From Dictyostelium discoideum (Eukaryota), in NCBI GenBank assembly GCA_000004695.1, contig CM000155.2, forward strand, positions 128,001-192,000: a stretch of 64,000 nt of DNA, read 5' to 3'. Numbering within the stretch: the stretch's first letter is position 1; every line of letters begins with the position of its first letter. This document shows positions 12,829 through 25,138 of the stretch, one piece after another. The notes beneath the pieces are model-generated. The model ran no database searches and had not been told where the DNA came from. It saw nothing but the letters and a program-made list of their open reading frames with translations. The position numbers and the translations under genes were made by a program.

Positions 12829-13084
12829 ATGATTAATATGATTGATAATAATAAAGGCATCAATAAATTAGATGCAGCAATTTATTATTATCTGGTTGAA
12901 AAAGGGATGGCAAAAACAGCTCTATCATTTTCACAAGAAATGAACTTTGATATTGGTGGGCTGAGTCCACTACTCTCAAATTCATCCCATTTATTATCAA
13001 AAGGTTGGGAACAATTAAATTCAATTGGATTTTTCAATAATCAAAATATTCATATGACAAGTAGTCCAATTAGTATTAATAGCA

Positions 13085-13117
<33 letters not shown>

Positions 13118-13154
13118 GCAATGGCAATAATATTCATTTAAATAATAGTCCACC

Positions 13155-13190
<36 letters not shown>

Positions 13191-13605
13191 CAACCCGCCA
13201 AATTTCTTAGGTAACAACAATACAAATAGTAATAATAATAATAACAATAATAATAATAGTAATAATAAAAACAGCTTTTTATTTCAAAATCCAAACCAAA
13301 TAGCAAATCCTTCTTTTTTTTCATCAGCCAATCCCTCAACTAATAATATAATACCGCCAAATCCAAATCCAAATTCTAATAATAATAATACTGGTAATAG
13401 TGGAGGCTTAATTTTAGATAATTCAGCCACAAACTTTTTCCAAAATGTAAATAGTAGTGACAATAATAATAACAACAATAATAATAGTGGTAATAATGTT
13501 AATAACAATAACACGAACCAATCCATTTTTCTCTCATCTCAAAAACAACCGATTCAAACCGAACCAAAAAATAATACTAACAACACCAATAATATTAATC
13601 CAAGC

Positions 13606-13658
<53 letters not shown>

Positions 13659-15261
13659 CAGTAGCAGTAACAATACCAATAATAATAATAATAATAATAA
13701 TATTGATAATTTACAAAGTTCAATTTCATCACAATTACAATTATCATCCCCACCGTCAAGTTCCCCAATTGCAACATCAGCAATGTCCCCAAATAATTTG
13801 GATACAAACCAAATACTCCATACAATAGGGTGCAATATCGAGCATATTCACAATCAATTTTGTAATATGTTGTTTCAAAATCAAACAAATTCATCACCTT
13901 CTTTGTCTACCTCTCATACTTCAATGAACATAACTAACGAGCCAGCAAAAATTTTAGATAAAAAATCACAATTTTCAATTCAATCTCAAAATGATGATAA
14001 TAATACTACTAACAATAATAATAATAATAATATTAGTAATAATAATAATAATAATAATAATAGTAGTAATAGTAGTAATAATAATAATCATGGTAACAAT
14101 CGCAATATTCATAATCATTCACATGGACATAATCAACACAACCATGGCCATGGTCATAATCAACACAACCATGGACATAATCATGGCCATCATAATCATG
14201 GGCATGGACATAATCATGGACATCACAATCATGGCCATCATAATCATGGTCATAATCATAATCATAATCATGGTCATAATCATAATCATGGAAATCACAA
14301 TAATGGCCAAAATACTCCAATTCACAATCATTTTTCTAGTGCACCAATACCAATTGGATCTAATAATAATAATAATAATAAAACAACCACTACAACAACT
14401 ACTACAACAACAACAACGAATAGTTCATCACCAAGTGATGGAATTAATTTCAATTTAAATAGTAATAGTAGTGATGTTGAAAGTTATTTAATAAAATCCA
14501 TTGGTGAAGGAGGTGAAGAGAAATTCACATGTGACTATCAATCATGTGGTAAATCATTTAGTACATTGGCTATATTTAAACGACATTTAAAAGAACATAC
14601 TGGTTGTAAACCATTCGTTTGTACTGAAGAGGGTTGCAATAAAAGATTCTCAAGAAAATTCGACTTAAAGGTACATTTACGTTCTCATACAGGTGAAAAG
14701 CCTTATCTTTGTACATTCCCTGGTTGTAGTAAAAGATTTGCTCGTTCCTCTGATTTACGTCTTCATCAAAGAATTCATACTGGTGAGAAACCTTTTGTAT
14801 GTGATTGGGAAGGTTGTTCAAAAAGATTTATTCGTCAAGCTGATTTAAAAAAACATAGAAAAACACATCAACTTAATAATAATAATAATGCAGCAGCAGC
14901 ATCATCATCATCTTCATCATCTTCGTCACATCCACATGTTCATAGTGTTGGTTGTGGTCATACAGCAATAGCTCATGAAGGTCATATCGATTTTTTACAC
15001 GATCGCCATTTACATTCAATGAATCATGATCATGTTGATCATAGTATTGAAGTATCCGAAACCAATCCTACAAGTTGTACTCCTAAATTCGTTTGTAGTC
15101 ATCATCCTGATGGTTCTTCTCATTCAATGGATTGTGGTCATGAAATTGTTCCACATTTTGACCATTATGATTTCTTGGTCGATGGTCATCTTCATCATGT
15201 ACATGAAGGTCATTGCGATAATCATGGTTGGGTTGAAGTAATAAATAACTTTATGAAATAA
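12829..15261 (+). CDS. LisH-motif / 4x C2H2 zinc-finger nuclear protein with poly-Asn tracts, a (HGHN)n histidine-rich region and a Cys/His-rich C-terminal domain
   Basis: Continuous 810-aa ORF. N-terminal LisH-like 'LDAAIYYYLVEKGMAKTALSF'. Four tandem C-x4-C-x12-H-x3-H fingers at 'FTCDYQSCGKSF...HRKTH'. An ~60-aa run of H/G/N (14100-14320). The C-terminus has two copies of 'H.DFL.D.HLHH.HEGH'-like Cys/His motifs. Confidence 0.8.
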
Positions 15262-17940: not shown

Positions 17941-20900
17941 TTAAAAACCTGGTGGTTTAGCTTCTTTGATTACAGCACCATATTGATTACTAAGAACAAG
18001 AATTGATAATTTAGAAACATTTGAAATATCTAAAGATGAAACTGTTGAATAATCAAAGTAACCAGCAATATCTGTGTAACCATCTTTAAAGAATTCAACT
18101 GAACCATTTTTGTTTTTACTATAAACTTTGATATAGGTCTTTGAGATTGGTTGAGATTTTTGTTTATGAACAACTCTGAGTTGACCAACCTTTTCAGTGA
18201 TATATACGGCAAGATTATTGGAGTAAACGGTAATATTGTGATGAATTTGAGCTGAAACTACATCAATAACAACATTGCTATTGGCAAATTCATTTGGAAT
18301 CTTAAAGTTAAAGGTACCAGATTTATCTTTGAGTAAGAATGATTCCTTCTTATTTGGAGTAACATAAAGGAAGTGACCCAATTCTTGTTGAACGAATGGA
18401 TTGGTTGAGAAAAGATGTTCAATATCCATTACATAGTAACTAACGGTAATATCAACCAAATTACTATAGTTGACAGAGATTGTTCTATTTGATTCAGAGG
18501 AAATATCAAAAGTTGGTTCATTTGAGGCCATTTTATTTTGTCTTCTTTCTCTATCAATTTCTTTTTCATAATCAATTTCAACGGAATCTTTATTGGAAAC
18601 TTGATCAACTTTGTTTCTTAAATCTTTAAATAATGAATTCCAACGTTGAACTGGATAGTTTTCATATTTCTTGCTATTCTCTGCAGCAACTGTTGGATTT
18701 GGATTAAAGAAGTCTAAATAGGATAATAAGTAATCATATTGAACTTTCATTTCTGGTAAACAACTTGGTTGATTAAATTCTGACATATCAATTAATGGTT
18801 CATCGTCATCATCTTCTTCATCATGTTCATCATGATGATGATCATCATGTTCATCGTCACTTGCAATTTTCTCTGGTTTAATTGATTCTTGAGAGGTTGC
18901 AGTGGTAGTAGTAGTGGTAGTAGTAGCTTCGGTTGTTGTTGTTGTTGTTGGAGTAGCTGGATCAACTGATGGAGAAGTTGCTTCAGAACCAGATTTCTTT
19001 TTCAATTTCTTTTCTTCTTCTTTCTTTTTCTTTTCTTCTTTTTCTTTTTTCTTTAATTCTTCTTTTTCTCTCTTTTTATCTTCTTTTTCTTTTTGTTTTC
19101 TTTCTTTTTCTCTTTGTTTTTCTTCTTTTTCAAGTTTCTTTTTATCTTTTGAACTATCAGTAGTGGTTGATAAATTTGAAGAGGAAGAAGAAGAAATTAC
19201 TGATGAATGAGTTGATTTTGAATCAGTAGTGGTTGAAGAAGAAATTAATTTTGGAATTGAAACTGGATGTTTACCAATTCTCTTCATAATTTTAATTGAT
19301 TCATCAAATCTATCTTGAAGTAATAAATAATAAGCTAAAGAAAGTAATTCAGTATCGGATGGATTTAATTTCAATGAAAGTAAACTACAGAATTCATAAT
19401 ATTGATTTGATAATTTATTATTAAGAATCTTTCTTTCATCACCAATTTGATGAGTTCTTGAATTAACCAATGGAGAGTATTCCAAGAATTTGATGAAGTT
19501 ATTTTCAAATGGATCAACATAAATGGATGGTGCATCGATTGATTTCATTGATAAGGAATGAATTTGTTCAGAGAGGTAATCTTTCAAGTAAACGAAATTC
19601 TTATGATGAATAGAGAATGACCAAGTGATAGATTCATAGAATTTCAATTTCTTTAAGAGTTCAATTACTTTATCCCAAACTTTCTTATCGGTATATCTAT
19701 GATAGAGATGATAGAAATCAACACGATACAAATTGTTCTTTGATAAATATTCCAAGATTGATTCCAATGTACCTTGATTTGCAATGTATTCCCATGATAA
19801 ATGATTGACAATAGATGGTTTTAAAACTACACTAAAGGTGAATGGTGTAACATTGGCAATAATATTTTGTTTCTCTGAAACGTGAGCAGGGAAATGTGGG
19901 AATTTACCAGCTTCTGGGAAATAGAAATAATATTGTAAACGAGTGGTACTATATGCAGATAGATTAACAGATTTAGAACGTGTTACAAATGGTGATGGAC
20001 CAACAGCAATTGAACCCTTTGGAATCTCTAAAAGGGCATCCAATTTCTTTTGTTTTGAAGAAAGATTTGCAATTACAACCATTGCACCATAAACCTTTGA
20101 GACAAGGAATTGGTCATTGATATAGAGTTCCTCTTGTTCACCATCTATATAGGTGAATTGATTTTGTGGATCAAAGAAATGTTGAGTTACCAAAATATCA
20201 GATTGTTTTTCAATGCTTCCAGATACCAACTCTTGATGGAAAACAACGATTGGTGTAGTTGGTTTCATTGATAATTTTCCATTCTTTGGTCTAACTTGAG
20301 TGGTATTATCCTTTACAGTGAATGGGAAATCCAATACTGAAAGAGCCATCATTGATTCAGCAAATGATGAACTAATGAATGCAATGTATTTACTAACAAA
20401 TGGTGTTTTGCTTTGGCTCTTGATATGATTTGCATAGTCTAACCAAAATTCATTGACTGGAATCAATGACGAATGTGGATTCAATTGTTTATAATAGTAA
20501 GTTTCTGCTAATTCTTCAGTTTTTTCAATTGGTTGATAGATTTGTGCTGCTTCATAGGCACGAGTAATTGGAGCTGGTGGTGCTGGTGATGCTGATGCCA
20601 ATCTGGCTGATCTCAATGCTGCCATTGGAACTGCTCCAGGTGCTGGACAAGGTGCTGAAGCCATCATCATCATTGGTGCAGCACAATCCATCATTAAACT
20701 TGTTGATTCTTTATTTACCATTTTCTTTTTCATTGGAGCTCTCTTAGCATCACCAAAAGAATTGCTATTAGTAGTATTATTGTTATTGTTGCTATTGTTA
20801 TTGTAGCCGAAACCACCACCACCTCCAACACTCATTGGTTCTAAATTACTACCATCATCATAAAGATCATCATCACCACTCTTTAAACTTTCAATATCAG

Positions 20901-23892
20901 TATCTAATTGATTTAAAGCGATCTTGAAATTTGTATCATATTGAGATGGTGAAATTGGAGAGAAGCCAACTTTTTGTTTCAAAAGATTTGAAATTGAATC
21001 TGAATGTTCTGGGAATAGCTCACCTAATAAAACCATTTCCAAAGCATTTAAAGTGTTGAATCTATTTGAATCGATAACAAATATTTCCAATTTCTTTCTA
21101 TCGGCACATAAATAATGATCAATGAATGTTTTATAACCTTTAGTTTGAACCAATGGTAATACAACTTGATCAAAGAATTCCTTATCCTTTTTATAGATGA
21201 AAAAGTTTAATTCATGGCAAGTGAACTTTGAGAATTTCTCTTTCTTCTTTTCAAATGATAATGATTCCCATTCTGCAATGAAAGAAAAATCTTGAAGATA
21301 ACTCTTATTCAAAGTTTTCATTAAAGATAAAACTTTATCTAAACTATCGTATACTGTATATTTTGAAGAGTTTACATTTAAGATTTCAAATGGTGAATTT
21401 GGTTCAACAGTTGTAATTAATTTCTCTTCTTTATAATGTAAAGATGAATCCAATGGTCTAACTAATTTAGTATCTTTGAAATGATTAATCGATGATGATG
21501 ATGATGGATCAGAAATAACAATCTCTTTTGTAAAGATAGAATCATTATCAACGGCATGGATATGAATTGTTGAACCAGCTTCTACTAATTGAGAGAGATC
21601 AATATTTACTATACCATCAGTTGATGATGGTTCAAGATTTAAAAGTAAAATTGATGGATGTGAAAGAAACTCTAAAAATGGTGAACGATTTGTTGAAGAA
21701 ACTCTTCTCTTTTCAACTTGTCTATTTCTCATTGATTTTTCATCCTTTACTTCAGATTCATTGTATTTACTTGCTTGTTTGAGTGTGTTTGTAGAGTTTG
21801 TAGTTTTACCAATTGACCATGGTTGAACCAATAGACTTGGTTTCTTTAATGAATTACCAGGTAATAGTTTTTTACTAGTTTTTCTATTTAAAATGTAATT
21901 AACTTCATCACCTAATGATCTACCATTGAAATATAATGATTTTGGTTTAACGCTATATTCTTGATAAGATTGAGAAGTACCACGTGATAAAGATAAACTT
22001 GAATTTAAAGAATTTGTTGGTTCAAAGTAACTTGAAAAAACGTGAACTCTAGTTGAAGGGCTATGATTCTTAAATTTAACTTGAAGTTGATTATGTTTAG
22101 TATCAATGTTTGTATCAAAGAATAAAGATTTTACATTTGATTCATTGTATGAAACAATTCTTGATGGACCAACTAAATAACCTTCTCTAAATTGACCATC
22201 GACAACATCAATTAAAATCTCAACTGTATTACTTGATTGAATTGAACCTGCTAAAATCAATAAATATCTACCAACACCTAAACCATTGATAAGTAATTCA
22301 TTTTTATTTTCAATTGTTACAGATTTCTTTAAAAGGTCATGAACAACGAAATTTCTATCATCAACACCACCCAATTGGAAAAAGTTGATTTGTGAATGTG
22401 AAACTGATTTTTCATTACCAAGATATGGTAAACGAATGGTTTCACCCAATTTAATGTTAATTTGAGATGGATAAGTGAATTGTTGTTGTCTTTTAATTGG
22501 GAAATTAAAGGTTGCATAGGAACCATTTACATTTAATTGTTCGATATCAGCCAAAGAACCTAAATGAATTTTACCATTTTTATCGGTTTTCAAAGTGGTA
22601 TAAATTCTTTCAGAGGTTAACCAATGTTGGAAATCCATTGAGACATCCAAATGAGAGAATGGATCACCACCTTTACCAAGATGACAAAGTTGATAACCTA
22701 ATGAACACCCATCTTTAGCTAGACAACGTTCTAAATAGAATTCAGAGATTTGATCAGTTTGATTGATAGTATTAACTTGGAAAGTGGATTCAAATGAAAG
22801 AGTCTCTTGATTATTATTTCTACTAAGAGCACGAACTTTAGCTTCGAAACGAACAGTCAAACTATTTAAACCTTCTTGAACTTTATATTGATATACAGAT
22901 TCTTTATTATCGAATAGAGCAAATGGTTTAATTTCCTTTGAGTTTACAACTGGTGATTCAGAATTATCAGAACTTGTAATGGTGAGAGATGGTTCCTCGA
23001 GATAATTGTTTGAGATTTGAGTATCACCCAAGAACAATTTAACTCTTACAACGATTGGAGCCTTTTCATTTTGAAGTAAACTTGAGTTTTCAACGAAAAT
23101 ACCACCACTTAAAGAGTAATGTTCCGATTGATGAGTGAATTTCTTTAATGAAGCAAATACATCGGAATCACCAATCTTTGCCATTAGAATGATACTCTTT
23201 TGTGAGGTAGATGAAGAGAATGGTATTTTAATATCACCATCATCATTGCTATTGTAGGCATTTCCATCGATGTAAACTGAACTCTTTTGAACTTTGATTG
23301 AATCTTGATCAATGATTTTAATGACTTGACCAATTGGTGAGGTTTCAACAATGAAATGAAGGTCACCCTTTTGAATCATTGATCTACTACTCTTACCATT
23401 ACCAATGAATTCAATTACGAAAATACCTCTCTTTCCTTTAAGATTTGGAAAATCGAATTTCTTTTCAACCTTTTCAATTGGTGCTTGCTCTGAATAATCA
23501 AATGACAACTCTTGACTTGCAATTAAACCATCCAAGTTAATATTTGAATCGATTTTCTTATTTTCACTCTTATAATAATTGAATGTTGAAATTTCAAATA
23601 CTTTTACCAAAAGAGTATTTACATTTTTAATTGCACATTCAATGACTACATCATCATCTGGATGATAATATTCTCTATTGGTTGGTAAGAATTCAATATC
23701 AACACGATCTTTCAACTCTTGTACCTTTGTATGATTATCAATCATTTCAATCCATTTCTCTGGTGAACTATCATTTGATAATAATTTACTCTCTGCTAAT
23801 ATTAAATTTAAATAATTTGGTCTAAAATAACTTTGATATGATTTAATACTATTTTCTTTTAAAAATAATTTTTTTAATAAAAATGAAATCTA

Positions 23893-23932
<40 letters not shown>

Positions 23933-25138
23933 AAGTTAATAATAAAAAAAAGAAATTTAATAATATTATATATATTTAAAAAAAAAACTTACTAATTTTT
24001 CATCATCATCTTGTGATACAGATTTTAAACCATTAAAAGAATCATTAAATTTTGATAATTGTGGATTTGATTTTAATCTATCTGGTTCAACATAATAATA
24101 TGTATCTCTTGGTAATTGAAAATATTTTTCAATTATTGATTGATCATATTTATTATCAGAAATTTGGAATTTAATATAATGATGATAGATTAATAATTTG
24201 AAGGTGTTTAAAGATGTTGGAAGATTTGAAACAAATTTTGAAGCAGATTGATAAAATTGTTCTTGTACTGGTTTAAGAGTTTCCCAATCATGTAATTCAT
24301 TGGTTGGTAATAATTTCTCTAAATAAAGTTTAACATAGGCTGAATCTAAATGCTCTGGATTCTTTTCAATGTGTTTCTCCATTTGTTCCAATGTTAAATT
24401 TTCATGAATTTTCAAAGAACCAAATGAACCCTTATGATGACTTAACAATTGTTGTAATTTATCATTTGGTACAATTGGGTACTTTAATTTTTGTACAATC
24501 GATTTCTCGGCAGATTCTGGTAATGTGAAATTATTTAATACATATTCGAATGAATTTGGTGAAATATAATCAACCTTGTATGGATACTGATTGATAATAC
24601 TTTCAATTACTGTTTTTTTATTTACAAGTGATTCATCTAATGTTGATTCTGATTTATCGTCATGTGATGATGATGATGATGATGAAGGTGTAGTTGTTGT
24701 TTCTGTGGTTGGTGAAGTTTGATGAGTAGTTTGAGTATATGAAAATGTTAAACTAAGGAGGTATCTTAATTCTTCAAACATGTCATTTACATTATTTGCT
24801 AATGCTGATGGATTTACATTATCTTGTCTAAAAGATAATAATTTTTGTCTAAGATCAACTGATTTATATTGTTGAGTGGATTCGTAATTGTTATTTCCTC
24901 CATATGGTGTTACTGGTATTGGTTTTGATTCTGGTGACCAATCTTTCATTAACTTTTGATACTTTTCTCTATTTTTACTGTCGGATAATGTTGGATCAAC
25001 ATTTAATAAATGAATAACATTATAATAGAAATATTGTGGACTACCACCTATCAATGTTCCCAATAATTTCTCTTTCTCTTCAATATCACTTGCTAATACA
25101 TAATTTTCTTCAAATTTTTTATTATTTGAAACTGTCAT
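17941..25138 (-). CDS. Very large (~2364 aa) protein of unknown function; exons 17941..23889 and 23993..25138
   Basis: ORF 17941..23745 is open upstream to a TTATTAG acceptor (23890-23896). ORF 23966..25216 (real start 'MTVSNNKKFEEN' at 25138) ends at a GTAAGT donor after '...DDDEKL' at 23987-23992. Both exons are phase 0. Internal features are a Lys/Glu coiled-coil-like stretch, Thr-rich runs and a GC-rich Ala/Pro/Met-rich segment. Confidence 0.55.

Follow-up and report, generated by a model that had tools for sequence, protein, structure and literature searches.

The closest described system to the gene considered here is the CAGE complex, which McCafferty et al. (bioRxiv 2025, doi 10.1101/2025.09.22.677704, PMC12485934) solved in native form from Dictyostelium by cryo-electron microscopy at 3.58 A as a hollow homotetramer of about 1 MDa with a cavity of about 600 nm3, Actin-binding protein F (AbpF) being the sole Dictyostelium member. 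We analysed a 64,000-nucleotide stretch of the Dictyostelium discoideum genome (contig CM000155.2, positions 128,001 to 192,000; referred to below as the window), which carries the AbpF gene, abpF, on its minus strand at 17941-25138 and, within that gene, a GC-rich island encoding a run of Ala, Pro and Met.

According to the same preprint (PMC12485934), CAGE homologues number in the thousands, more than two thirds of them bacterial (Planctomycetota and Verrucomicrobiota) and mostly with signal peptides, and eukaryotic CAGE is cytosolic and has none. The protein is described with 15 domains, including N-terminal helical ones that correspond to abpF exon 1, and without a domain match in Pfam or SCOP, with alpha-2-macroglobulin (A2M) as the top Foldseek match for two of its beta-sandwich domains. 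In Tetrahymena, the helical 'domain 11' comes in two pieces (1244-1414 and 1519-1559) and is enclosed by the two pieces of the beta 'domain 10' (1215-1244 and 1565-1598), with no domain assigned to residues 1415-1495; the inter-domain coils are unresolved, and domain swapping through them is possible. The authors state that the function is unknown, and propose a chaperone, a container or a protease trap; the name AbpF comes from actin binding, and an actin cross-link was reported for Tetrahymena CAGE. The preprint text uses neither 'disordered' nor 'low complexity', and makes no mention of loop composition or of a GC island (PMC12485934). AbpF is among the 50 most abundant proteins listed for the stable D. 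discoideum proteome (PMC12821622), and appears in a table of a Dictyostelium centrosome review. A search for later papers on the CAGE complex found none, and solved CAGE coordinates were not in the copies of the PDB that were searched.

The abpF gene and the origin of its GC-rich island

The gene has two exons on the minus strand (25138-23993 and 23889-17941), with a start ATG at 25138, a GTAAGT donor at 23992 and a TTAG acceptor at 23890, and encodes 2364 amino acids. When every AG acceptor within 300 nt of the donor was tried, 23890 was the sole short-intron choice to restore the 2364-codon frame ending at 17941, the remaining in-frame acceptors yielding longer introns and shorter products. 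Because the spliced product is identical at every residue to XP_635154.1 (UniProt Q54ET6, ABPF_DICDI; DDB_G0291229), the gene model is exactly right, and with it the two-exon, 2364-residue gene proposed in an earlier note made from the letters of the window. That note had called the product unannotatable and free of any recognisable domain. The second statement holds for Pfam and for PDB sequences: Pfam gave for full-length AbpF only a sub-threshold low-complexity match (CAF1A_acidic, at a Lys/Glu block) and detected no nucleotide-binding domain, and phmmer of AbpF against all PDB sequences returned nothing relevant. The first is correct only as far as Pfam is concerned, since the product is a named protein, AbpF/CAGE, with a published cryo-EM structure. 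The same protein is filed under two separate NCBI accessions (EAL61598.1 and KAM9951167.1), and the exon-2 product including the island is present in Logan read assemblies (P0004, 100% identity, 2 contigs); an assembly chimera, which the earlier note had named as a refuting case, is therefore excluded. We regard it as nearly certain that this is D. discoideum abpF, the gene for the single Dictyostelium CAGE subunit, and that the high GC of its island is compositional in origin. The parts of the gene and the island lie as follows.

23993-25138, minus strand: abpF exon 1, amino acids 1-382, the N-terminal helical region (ATG, donor and splice test)
23890-23992, minus strand: intron of 103 nt, GTAAGT...TTAG, with a long poly-T tract
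17941-23889, minus strand: abpF exon 2, amino acids 383-2364 and the stop codon
20542-20694, minus strand: GC island, a largely uncharged Ala/Pro/Met stretch with two Cys, 51% GC

Across its 64 kb the window is 22.9% GC, with short, AT-rich introns of the Dictyostelium kind. The island peptide, MMDCAAPMMMMASAPCPAPGAVPMAALRSARLASASPAPPAPITRAYEAAQ, spans amino acids 1448-1498 (20694-20542, minus strand), and the 153 nt that encode it are 51.0% GC compared with 29.3% in the rest of the coding sequence. At z about 3, positions 20544-20696 form the most GC-rich 153-nt window of all 64 kb, so that the GC-rich peak previously noticed is real and is the maximum of the whole window, although the figure of ~55% attached to it was too high: 20560-20720 is 46.6% GC. 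GC at the three codon positions (GC1/GC2/GC3) is 0.61/0.71/0.22 in the island and 0.39/0.31/0.18 elsewhere in the coding sequence, or for GC3, more precisely, 0.216 and 0.178. The excess thus stems entirely from the amino acids encoded, Ala, Pro and Gly contributing it through the first two bases of their codons.

A capture of foreign DNA had been raised as one possible source of the island, and its only attraction is the local jump in GC itself (51% against 23%). The third codon positions are native (GC3 0.22), as are the codons: Ala is encoded by GCA and GCT, Pro by CCA and Ser by TCA, the same choice as in the remainder of abpF. Since the synonymous sites carry the AT bias of the host, a recently captured foreign segment is excluded. 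The reading frame is continuous through the island, stretches of the same character stand at the same position in every dictyostelid orthologue and in homologues from bacteria, and the identical sequence recurs in separate NCBI accessions and in read-based assemblies. Foreign DNA and chimeric assembly are in this way refuted by orthologue alignment and codon-position analysis, and we attach a negligible probability to either.

The composition is also rare. Among 13,308 windows of 50 amino acids, taken from all stop-free stretches of at least 100 amino acids in the 64 kb, the island region is the only real coding frame to reach 40% Ala+Pro+Met. A second frame rich in these residues, 14122-14346 on the minus strand, was rejected as an antisense artefact. 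It lies opposite a plus-strand open reading frame (12829-15261) for a C2H2 zinc-finger protein with a long (H-N-H-G)n His-rich repeat, the antisense of which reads as an M/I-rich run and so mimics a Met-rich sequence.

Structure and composition of the loop across the CAGE family

Two AlphaFold2 models were made from a 40-sequence alignment, one of amino acids 1206-2364 (mean predicted local distance difference test score, pLDDT, of 70) and one of amino acids 383-1582 (75.5). In both, amino acids 1379-1502 lack secondary structure and have a pLDDT of only about 28. Besides the island, this loop, termed L1, holds a Gly/Asn run of the Dictyostelium type and a basic patch (KRAPMKKKM). It follows the beta-sandwich array and, by the Tetrahymena boundaries, lies within helical domain 11, around which the beta domain 10 is split in turn; amino acids 1232-1378, just before it, correspond by position to roughly the first half of Tetrahymena domain 11. 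Directly after L1 stands an anchor motif with the family pattern Y..x..T.E[WLY]AE..YY, whose T, E and Y are invariant or nearly so in alignments of 40 and of 14 sequences, followed in the model by two helices and a beta-sandwich at 1587-1737. The predicted domain boundaries agree with the 15-domain plan of the preprint and with the split Tetrahymena domains 10 and 11, and the beta-rich segments noted earlier in the C-terminal part of the protein are present in the model.

21916-23703, minus strand: array of beta-sandwich (macroglobulin-like) domains, amino acids ~445-1040, all-beta segments with pLDDT 80-93
21688-21876, minus strand: second predicted disordered loop, L2, amino acids 1054-1116, pLDDT <50
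20902-21342, minus strand: helical domain before L1, amino acids 1232-1378, helices with pLDDT 84-95
20530-20901, minus strand: long predicted disordered loop L1, amino acids 1379-1502, 124 amino acids
20488-20541, minus strand: anchor motif directly after L1, IYQPIEKTEELAETYYYK
19825-20277, minus strand: beta-sandwich after L1, amino acids ~1587-1737, AlphaFold2 strands with pLDDT 85-95
17956-18513, minus strand: C-terminal pair of beta-sandwich domains, amino acids ~2175-2360

Every homologue has a loop equivalent to L1, 75-188 amino acids long, and most phmmer alignments break there. Among dictyostelids the sequence of the island changes quickly, with many indels. In D. citrinum the island is 76% identical to that of D. 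discoideum and its flanking domains 97%; in D. firmibasis the figures are 45% and 91-93%, and in the deeply diverged genera Polysphondylium, Acytostelium and Cavenderia they are 20-27% and 50-64%. An Ala/Pro/Met-rich stretch is nonetheless found in 9/9 dictyostelid sequences, with 60-87% Ala+Pro+Met in the best 30-residue window and an odds ratio for Met, relative to the rest of the protein, of 9-19 in every one. The comparison of orthologues, proposed earlier as a check on the island, therefore found its composition retained in all nine. Within D. discoideum AbpF, the linker at amino acids 1390-1499 has a Met odds ratio of 10.6 (p 6e-7). The other insertions of AbpF are runs of Asn, Thr, Ser or Lys/Glu. 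Because the genome is AT-rich and its insertions elsewhere in the protein have this character, the Ala and Pro codons of the island are kept against mutational pressure.

Outside the dictyostelids the loop has a related character. The pooled enrichment rests on a 152-sequence alignment, and over its 142 non-dictyostelid full-length members no residue is as strongly enriched in the loop as Met (4.2% against 1.2%, log2 +1.86); Ala (+0.94), Gly (+0.77) and Pro (+0.42) are enriched too, and His (-3.1, the most depleted), Trp, Tyr, Ile and Asn, aromatic and beta-branched residues generally, and Cys (-1.3) are depleted. The Met-richest 40-residue window of the protein falls inside the loop in 96 of 240 full-length members, against 16 expected from its length, and the window of 30 residues richest in Ala, Pro and Met does so in 108 of 158. 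A consensus P.PP...AP.M.M is retained in the 14-sequence alignment. Loops rich in Ala, Pro and Met are exemplified by P0139 (PMMAKRMAQPMMMMAACPPPPPPGMAMMAM), P0128 (PMMMMDMAPMASMVMAAPPPPGAPMPVMAA), P0164 (APMPPGPPGMAAPPPAMAPMAAPAPAPMAA) and a verrucomicrobial clade (AAAAPPPAPMSAAMPAAPMDSFAAAP), and the signal-peptide-bearing homologues P0086 and P0106 have loops of the same kind. In the core of L2, non-dictyostelid homologues are enriched in Gly (+1.61), Met (+1.24) and Ala (+1.10), figures that leave out a conserved PGNML motif by which Met would be inflated, and with which omission the enrichment is weaker but persists. L2 of D. discoideum is rich in Ser, Asn, Lys and Arg and has little Met.

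Taken together, these data make it highly probable that the island loop is disordered and under compositional constraint, and, as judged from the alignments, selection is on the composition of the loop rather than on its sequence. Of the origins first considered for the island, it is the constrained low-complexity linker that agrees with the results: a predicted disordered inter-domain loop whose composition is kept in dictyostelids and recurs in bacteria, and whose sequence is not kept.

Two further observations concern the loop. Of the ten Cys of AbpF, two lie in the island (C1451 and C1463; 20650-20694, minus strand). Cys beside or just before poly-Pro recurs (SAPCPAP, SAPCPPPP, ASACPPPPP, AACSAPPPP, AACPPPPPP) in several homologues without a signal-peptide-like N-terminus, the sequences concerned being P0006, P0007, P0139, P0040 and P0001, and an M-D/E-C motif recurs as MMDCAAP, MLDECAS, LMDCDGG and AMDECEM. 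The signal-peptide-bearing bacterial members that were inspected have a loop with Met and without Cys. A verrucomicrobial clade carries a Pfam PATR repeat (PF12951) inside the loop (P0031, amino acids 1435-1463; P0033, amino acids 1430-1457), just upstream of the T.EWAE..YY anchor, and the loop therefore tolerates inserted modules.

The family itself was recovered by sequence search. Full-length homologues were found with E-values down to 0 and about 1e-290, including orthologues in seven other dictyostelid species, together with about 30 full-length planctomycete and verrucomicrobial homologues at 26-31% identity; an exhaustive phmmer search gave 2152 cluster representatives at E<=1e-3, of which 793 reach E<=1e-30. 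AbpF is 28-31% identical to planctomycete proteins overall, and 33-41% over its C-terminal half. This is about as similar as Tetrahymena CAGE1, for which ~25% was reported (PMC12485934). A search aimed at named eukaryotic homologues lacking signal peptides, such as that of Tetrahymena, found none in the best 120. Membership of AbpF in the CAGE family is borne out by full-length homology, by the beta-sandwich array, by the split helical domain and by the C-terminal helical and beta domains. The absence of a Pfam domain, the helical and beta-sandwich domains, and the predominance of Planctomycetota and Verrucomicrobiota homologues with signal peptides, all described in the preprint, were reproduced here (PMC12485934). 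No gene neighbours are shared across three bacterial loci (L003, L004 and L005, carrying P0011, P0021 and P0027), so that the bacterial CAGE gene looks stand-alone; one of these loci adjoins a CRISPR cas1/cas2/cas4 cluster and transposases, and one adjoins a peptidase of the prolyl-oligopeptidase type (S9).

Fold similarity to alpha-2-macroglobulin, and other features of the window

When the model of amino acids 383-1582 was compared with the PDB by Foldseek, the top 50 matches were almost exclusively members of the A2M/thioester-protein superfamily, among them C5b, CD109, A2ML1, the A2Ms of E. coli and Salmonella, human A2M, C3, C4 and TEP1 (E 2e-10 to 3e-7, probability 1.0, 630-1230 aligned columns), and the C-terminal half matched the alpha-chains of C3b, C5 and CVF, and ECAM. 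The tandem macroglobulin-like (MG) beta-sandwich domains that mark the superfamily are seen in the models. The A2M likeness thereby extends further than in the preprint, where it concerned two domains (PMC12485934), as A2M and TEP proteins dominate the matches of both halves. Global TM-scores are low (0.09-0.18), so that only likeness at the level of domains is shown, and no conserved overall shape.

At the level of sequence, the CAGE family profile had 0 matches among PDB sequences at E<=10, the Pfam A2M families gave none in AbpF at E<=1, and hhalign of the family profile with E. coli A2M (YfhM) returned a non-significant probability of 2.8%. The thioester motif C[GL]EQ occurs 0 times in AbpF and in 1 of 192 homologues, and no thioester-domain-like fold was detected in AbpF. 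CAGE resembles A2M, complement, TEP and CD109 proteins in its array of macroglobulin-like domains, human A2M in forming a homotetrameric cage, and the superfamily in the export of its bacterial members from the cytoplasm and, probably, in a long, exposed and flexible loop that follows the beta array and is nested in other domains. It differs in having no sequence relationship detectable by Pfam, hmmsearch or hhalign and no thioester motif, in its large N-terminal helical region, in a loop that splits a helical domain and differs in composition from the bait of E. coli A2M, and in the cytosolic location of its eukaryotic members. As placed in the models, the position of the loop in the order of domains suggests that of the bait or anaphylatoxin region. 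The idea that bacterial A2M baits are rich in Ala, Pro and Met was not supported in the one case covered, E. coli YfhM.

Other low-complexity sequence in AbpF includes one large insertion in exon 2.

18751-19260, minus strand: low-complexity insertion, amino acids ~1926-2095, with Ser/Thr runs, a Lys/Glu block, a Thr run and an acidic/His run

This insertion, about 170 amino acids in size and ranging from 149 to 184, is confined to dictyostelids; the site is 12 amino acids long in bacterial homologues and 21 in P0040, a homologue represented by short transcript-like contigs. Its Lys/Glu block (amino acids 1962-2015; 18991-19152, minus strand) is the charged, coiled-coil-like block that had been pointed out earlier, together with Thr-rich runs that are likewise found in the translated product. 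AlphaFold2 predicts one long helix at amino acids 1962-2012, mostly of low confidence, with disorder on both sides. A Thr/Ser run at amino acids ~140-157, in exon 1, is specific to D. discoideum. Elsewhere in the window, a gene for a TCP-1/cpn60 (CCT) chaperonin subunit has an exon at 49191-50249 on the minus strand (PF00118, E 1.8e-105), within which 49579-49731, at 48% GC, is one of the two joint-second-highest GC peaks in the 64 kb. On the plus strand, another GC peak of 48%, at 55333-55646, encodes Gly/Thr-rich units such as WYSGGTTSNPVGTT, repeated in tandem.

Possible functions of the loop

By analogy with known systems, the island loop may be a flexible, hydrophobic 'Met-bristle' capture element, a reading to which we give a probability of roughly 0.4. 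One such loop per subunit would place four in each cage, where they would contact other polypeptides, whether clients or partners, in the interior or at the openings. In doing so they would act like the Gly/Met-rich tails of chaperonins, from a site roughly where A2M-type proteins bear their exposed bait. Conserved, disordered Gly/Met-rich tails line the cavity of GroEL, as two papers describe (PMC11978752, PMC12571646). The CAGE loop is like these tails in being disordered, in combining Met with small residues, in having a composition that is conserved without conservation of sequence, and in being carried once by each subunit of a hollow homo-oligomer, in bacteria as well as in eukaryotes. 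It differs from them in being internal (amino acids 1379-1502 of 2364) and about 120 amino acids long where the tails are short and terminal, and in being richer in Ala and Pro; in addition, no ATPase or lid is known for CAGE. A likeness of the Gly/Met type extends to the GGMP repeats of Hsp70 and the G/M region of Sis1.

Several considerations weigh against a role in capture. That the loop would face the cavity, or bind anything, is drawn from analogy, and the analogy is itself imperfect, in that the tails of GroEL, an ATPase, stand at the chain terminus, whereas the CAGE loop is internal in a protein with no known nucleotide site. In about one third of the homologues, P0019 and P0021-P0026 among them, the loop is charged or Gly-rich and poor in Met, and the loop accepts a PATR insertion in Verrucomicrobia, as a permissive spacer would. 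The enrichment counts come from related sequences, which are not phylogenetically independent. Moreover, Ala/Pro/Gly-rich linkers are common in high-GC bacteria, and the power to discriminate therefore lies in the excess of Met and in the dictyostelids alone.

Ala/Pro-rich inter-domain linkers are well known, for instance in the E2 component of 2-oxo-acid dehydrogenases, whose linkers resemble the CAGE loop as uncharged, extended Ala/Pro-rich segments between folded domains. The E2 linkers are, to our knowledge, not Met-rich, and the CAGE loop differs from them in its basic and acidic sub-segments and in being four to five times longer. It is possible, if somewhat unlikely, that the loop is a passive spacer or hinge of this sort, a non-sticky Ala/Pro 'swinging arm' that provides length and flexibility, perhaps for domain swapping, and in which the Met excess has no role. 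Its predicted disorder, its range of 75-188 amino acids, its unconserved sequence, the charged or Gly-rich versions in about a third of homologues and the PATR repeat inserted in Verrucomicrobia would all suit a spacer, and the preprint leaves domain swapping via the unresolved coils possible (PMC12485934). A spacer in D. discoideum would, however, be expected to drift, like the remaining insertions of AbpF, towards runs of Asn, Gln, Ser, Thr or Lys, whereas all nine dictyostelid sequences have the GC-rich Ala and Pro codons and a 9-19-fold excess of Met, and Met is the top-enriched residue family-wide and is enriched in L2 as well. More doubtful is the idea that the loop is a true bait, CAGE being a thioester-less and highly divergent protease trap of the A2M type in which cleavage of the loop would close the cage around the protease. 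The fold comparisons speak for it, with A2M, complement and TEP proteins making up nearly all of the top 50 for amino acids 383-1582 over up to 1230 columns, and with C3b, C5 and CVF alpha-chains and ECAM matched by the C-terminal half, as do the homotetrameric cage, like that of human A2M, and the place of the loop after the beta-sandwich array and nested in other domains. The bait of A2M is nested in a comparable way, within MG6. A 'protease trap' is among the preprint's own suggestions, and most bacterial CAGE proteins have predicted N-terminal secretion signals and hence leave the cytoplasm (PMC12485934). What counts against a bait is the lack of any relationship at the sequence level (nothing in Pfam, 0 PDB matches to the profile at E<=10, 2.8% in hhalign), the near absence of the thioester motif (CGEQ or CLEQ: 0 in AbpF, 1/192 homologues), TM-scores of 0.09-0.18, which indicate similarity of domains only, and an E. 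coli A2M bait that is not rich in Ala, Pro and Met. The loop also interrupts a helical domain, not demonstrably an MG6-like sandwich, and eukaryotic CAGE is cytosolic and without a signal peptide.

Two narrower proposals seem very improbable. The loop could be a patch of Met and Cys that binds Cu(I) or another soft metal or buffers redox, as in periplasmic copper proteins or the 'Mets' motifs of Ctr1, and it does contain MxM, MxxM and MMMM runs and, in AbpF, two of the ten Cys (C1451 and C1463), with Cys before poly-Pro recurring in several homologues that lack a signal-peptide-like N-terminus and the inspected signal-peptide-bearing bacterial members having Met without Cys. Yet His, a frequent co-ligand in Met-rich copper sites, is the residue most depleted from the loop (log2 -3.1), Cys too is depleted in the non-dictyostelid members (-1.3), the Met residues keep no conserved spacing, and no copper-related neighbours occur in the three bacterial loci. 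The basic patch KRAPMKKKM and the Ala/Pro-rich rod that follows it could, alternatively, contact actin and so explain the 'actin-binding' name, an arrangement that resembles the N-terminal extension of the myosin essential light chain A1. The patch and the Ala/Pro-rich stretch are indeed present in the sequence, AbpF was named for actin binding, and Tetrahymena CAGE has been cross-linked to actin (PMC12485934). Set against this, the composition of the loop recurs in signal-peptide-bearing bacterial homologues, which have no actin, and the position of the Tetrahymena cross-link is not mapped to the loop (PMC12485934); we therefore place very little weight on an actin contact.

A flexible capture element thus remains the explanation that we prefer for the island loop. 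AbpF and CAGE were already known, and the new content is modest, consisting of a Met-rich disordered loop that runs through the family and of the A2M/TEP fold likeness of both halves of the protein. What might have been an oddity of the genome, or foreign DNA, is the trace left in the coding sequence by a disordered loop of constrained composition, and the main loop is rich in Met, Ala, Pro and Gly family-wide, even under the strong AT pressure of Dictyostelium. The conservation of AbpF/CAGE, an abundant cage of megadalton size, reaches from Planctomycetes to slime moulds, and the enrichment of its loop together with the A2M-like fold makes the ideas of a chaperone, container or trap specific, centring them on amino acids 1379-1502. 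It is conceivable, although we think it unlikely, that CAGE is an ancient, thioester-less sister of A2M and complement, whose Met-rich loops lure proteases or non-native proteins; if true, this would give a first mechanistic handle on a 1-MDa orphan complex common to bacteria and eukaryotes.

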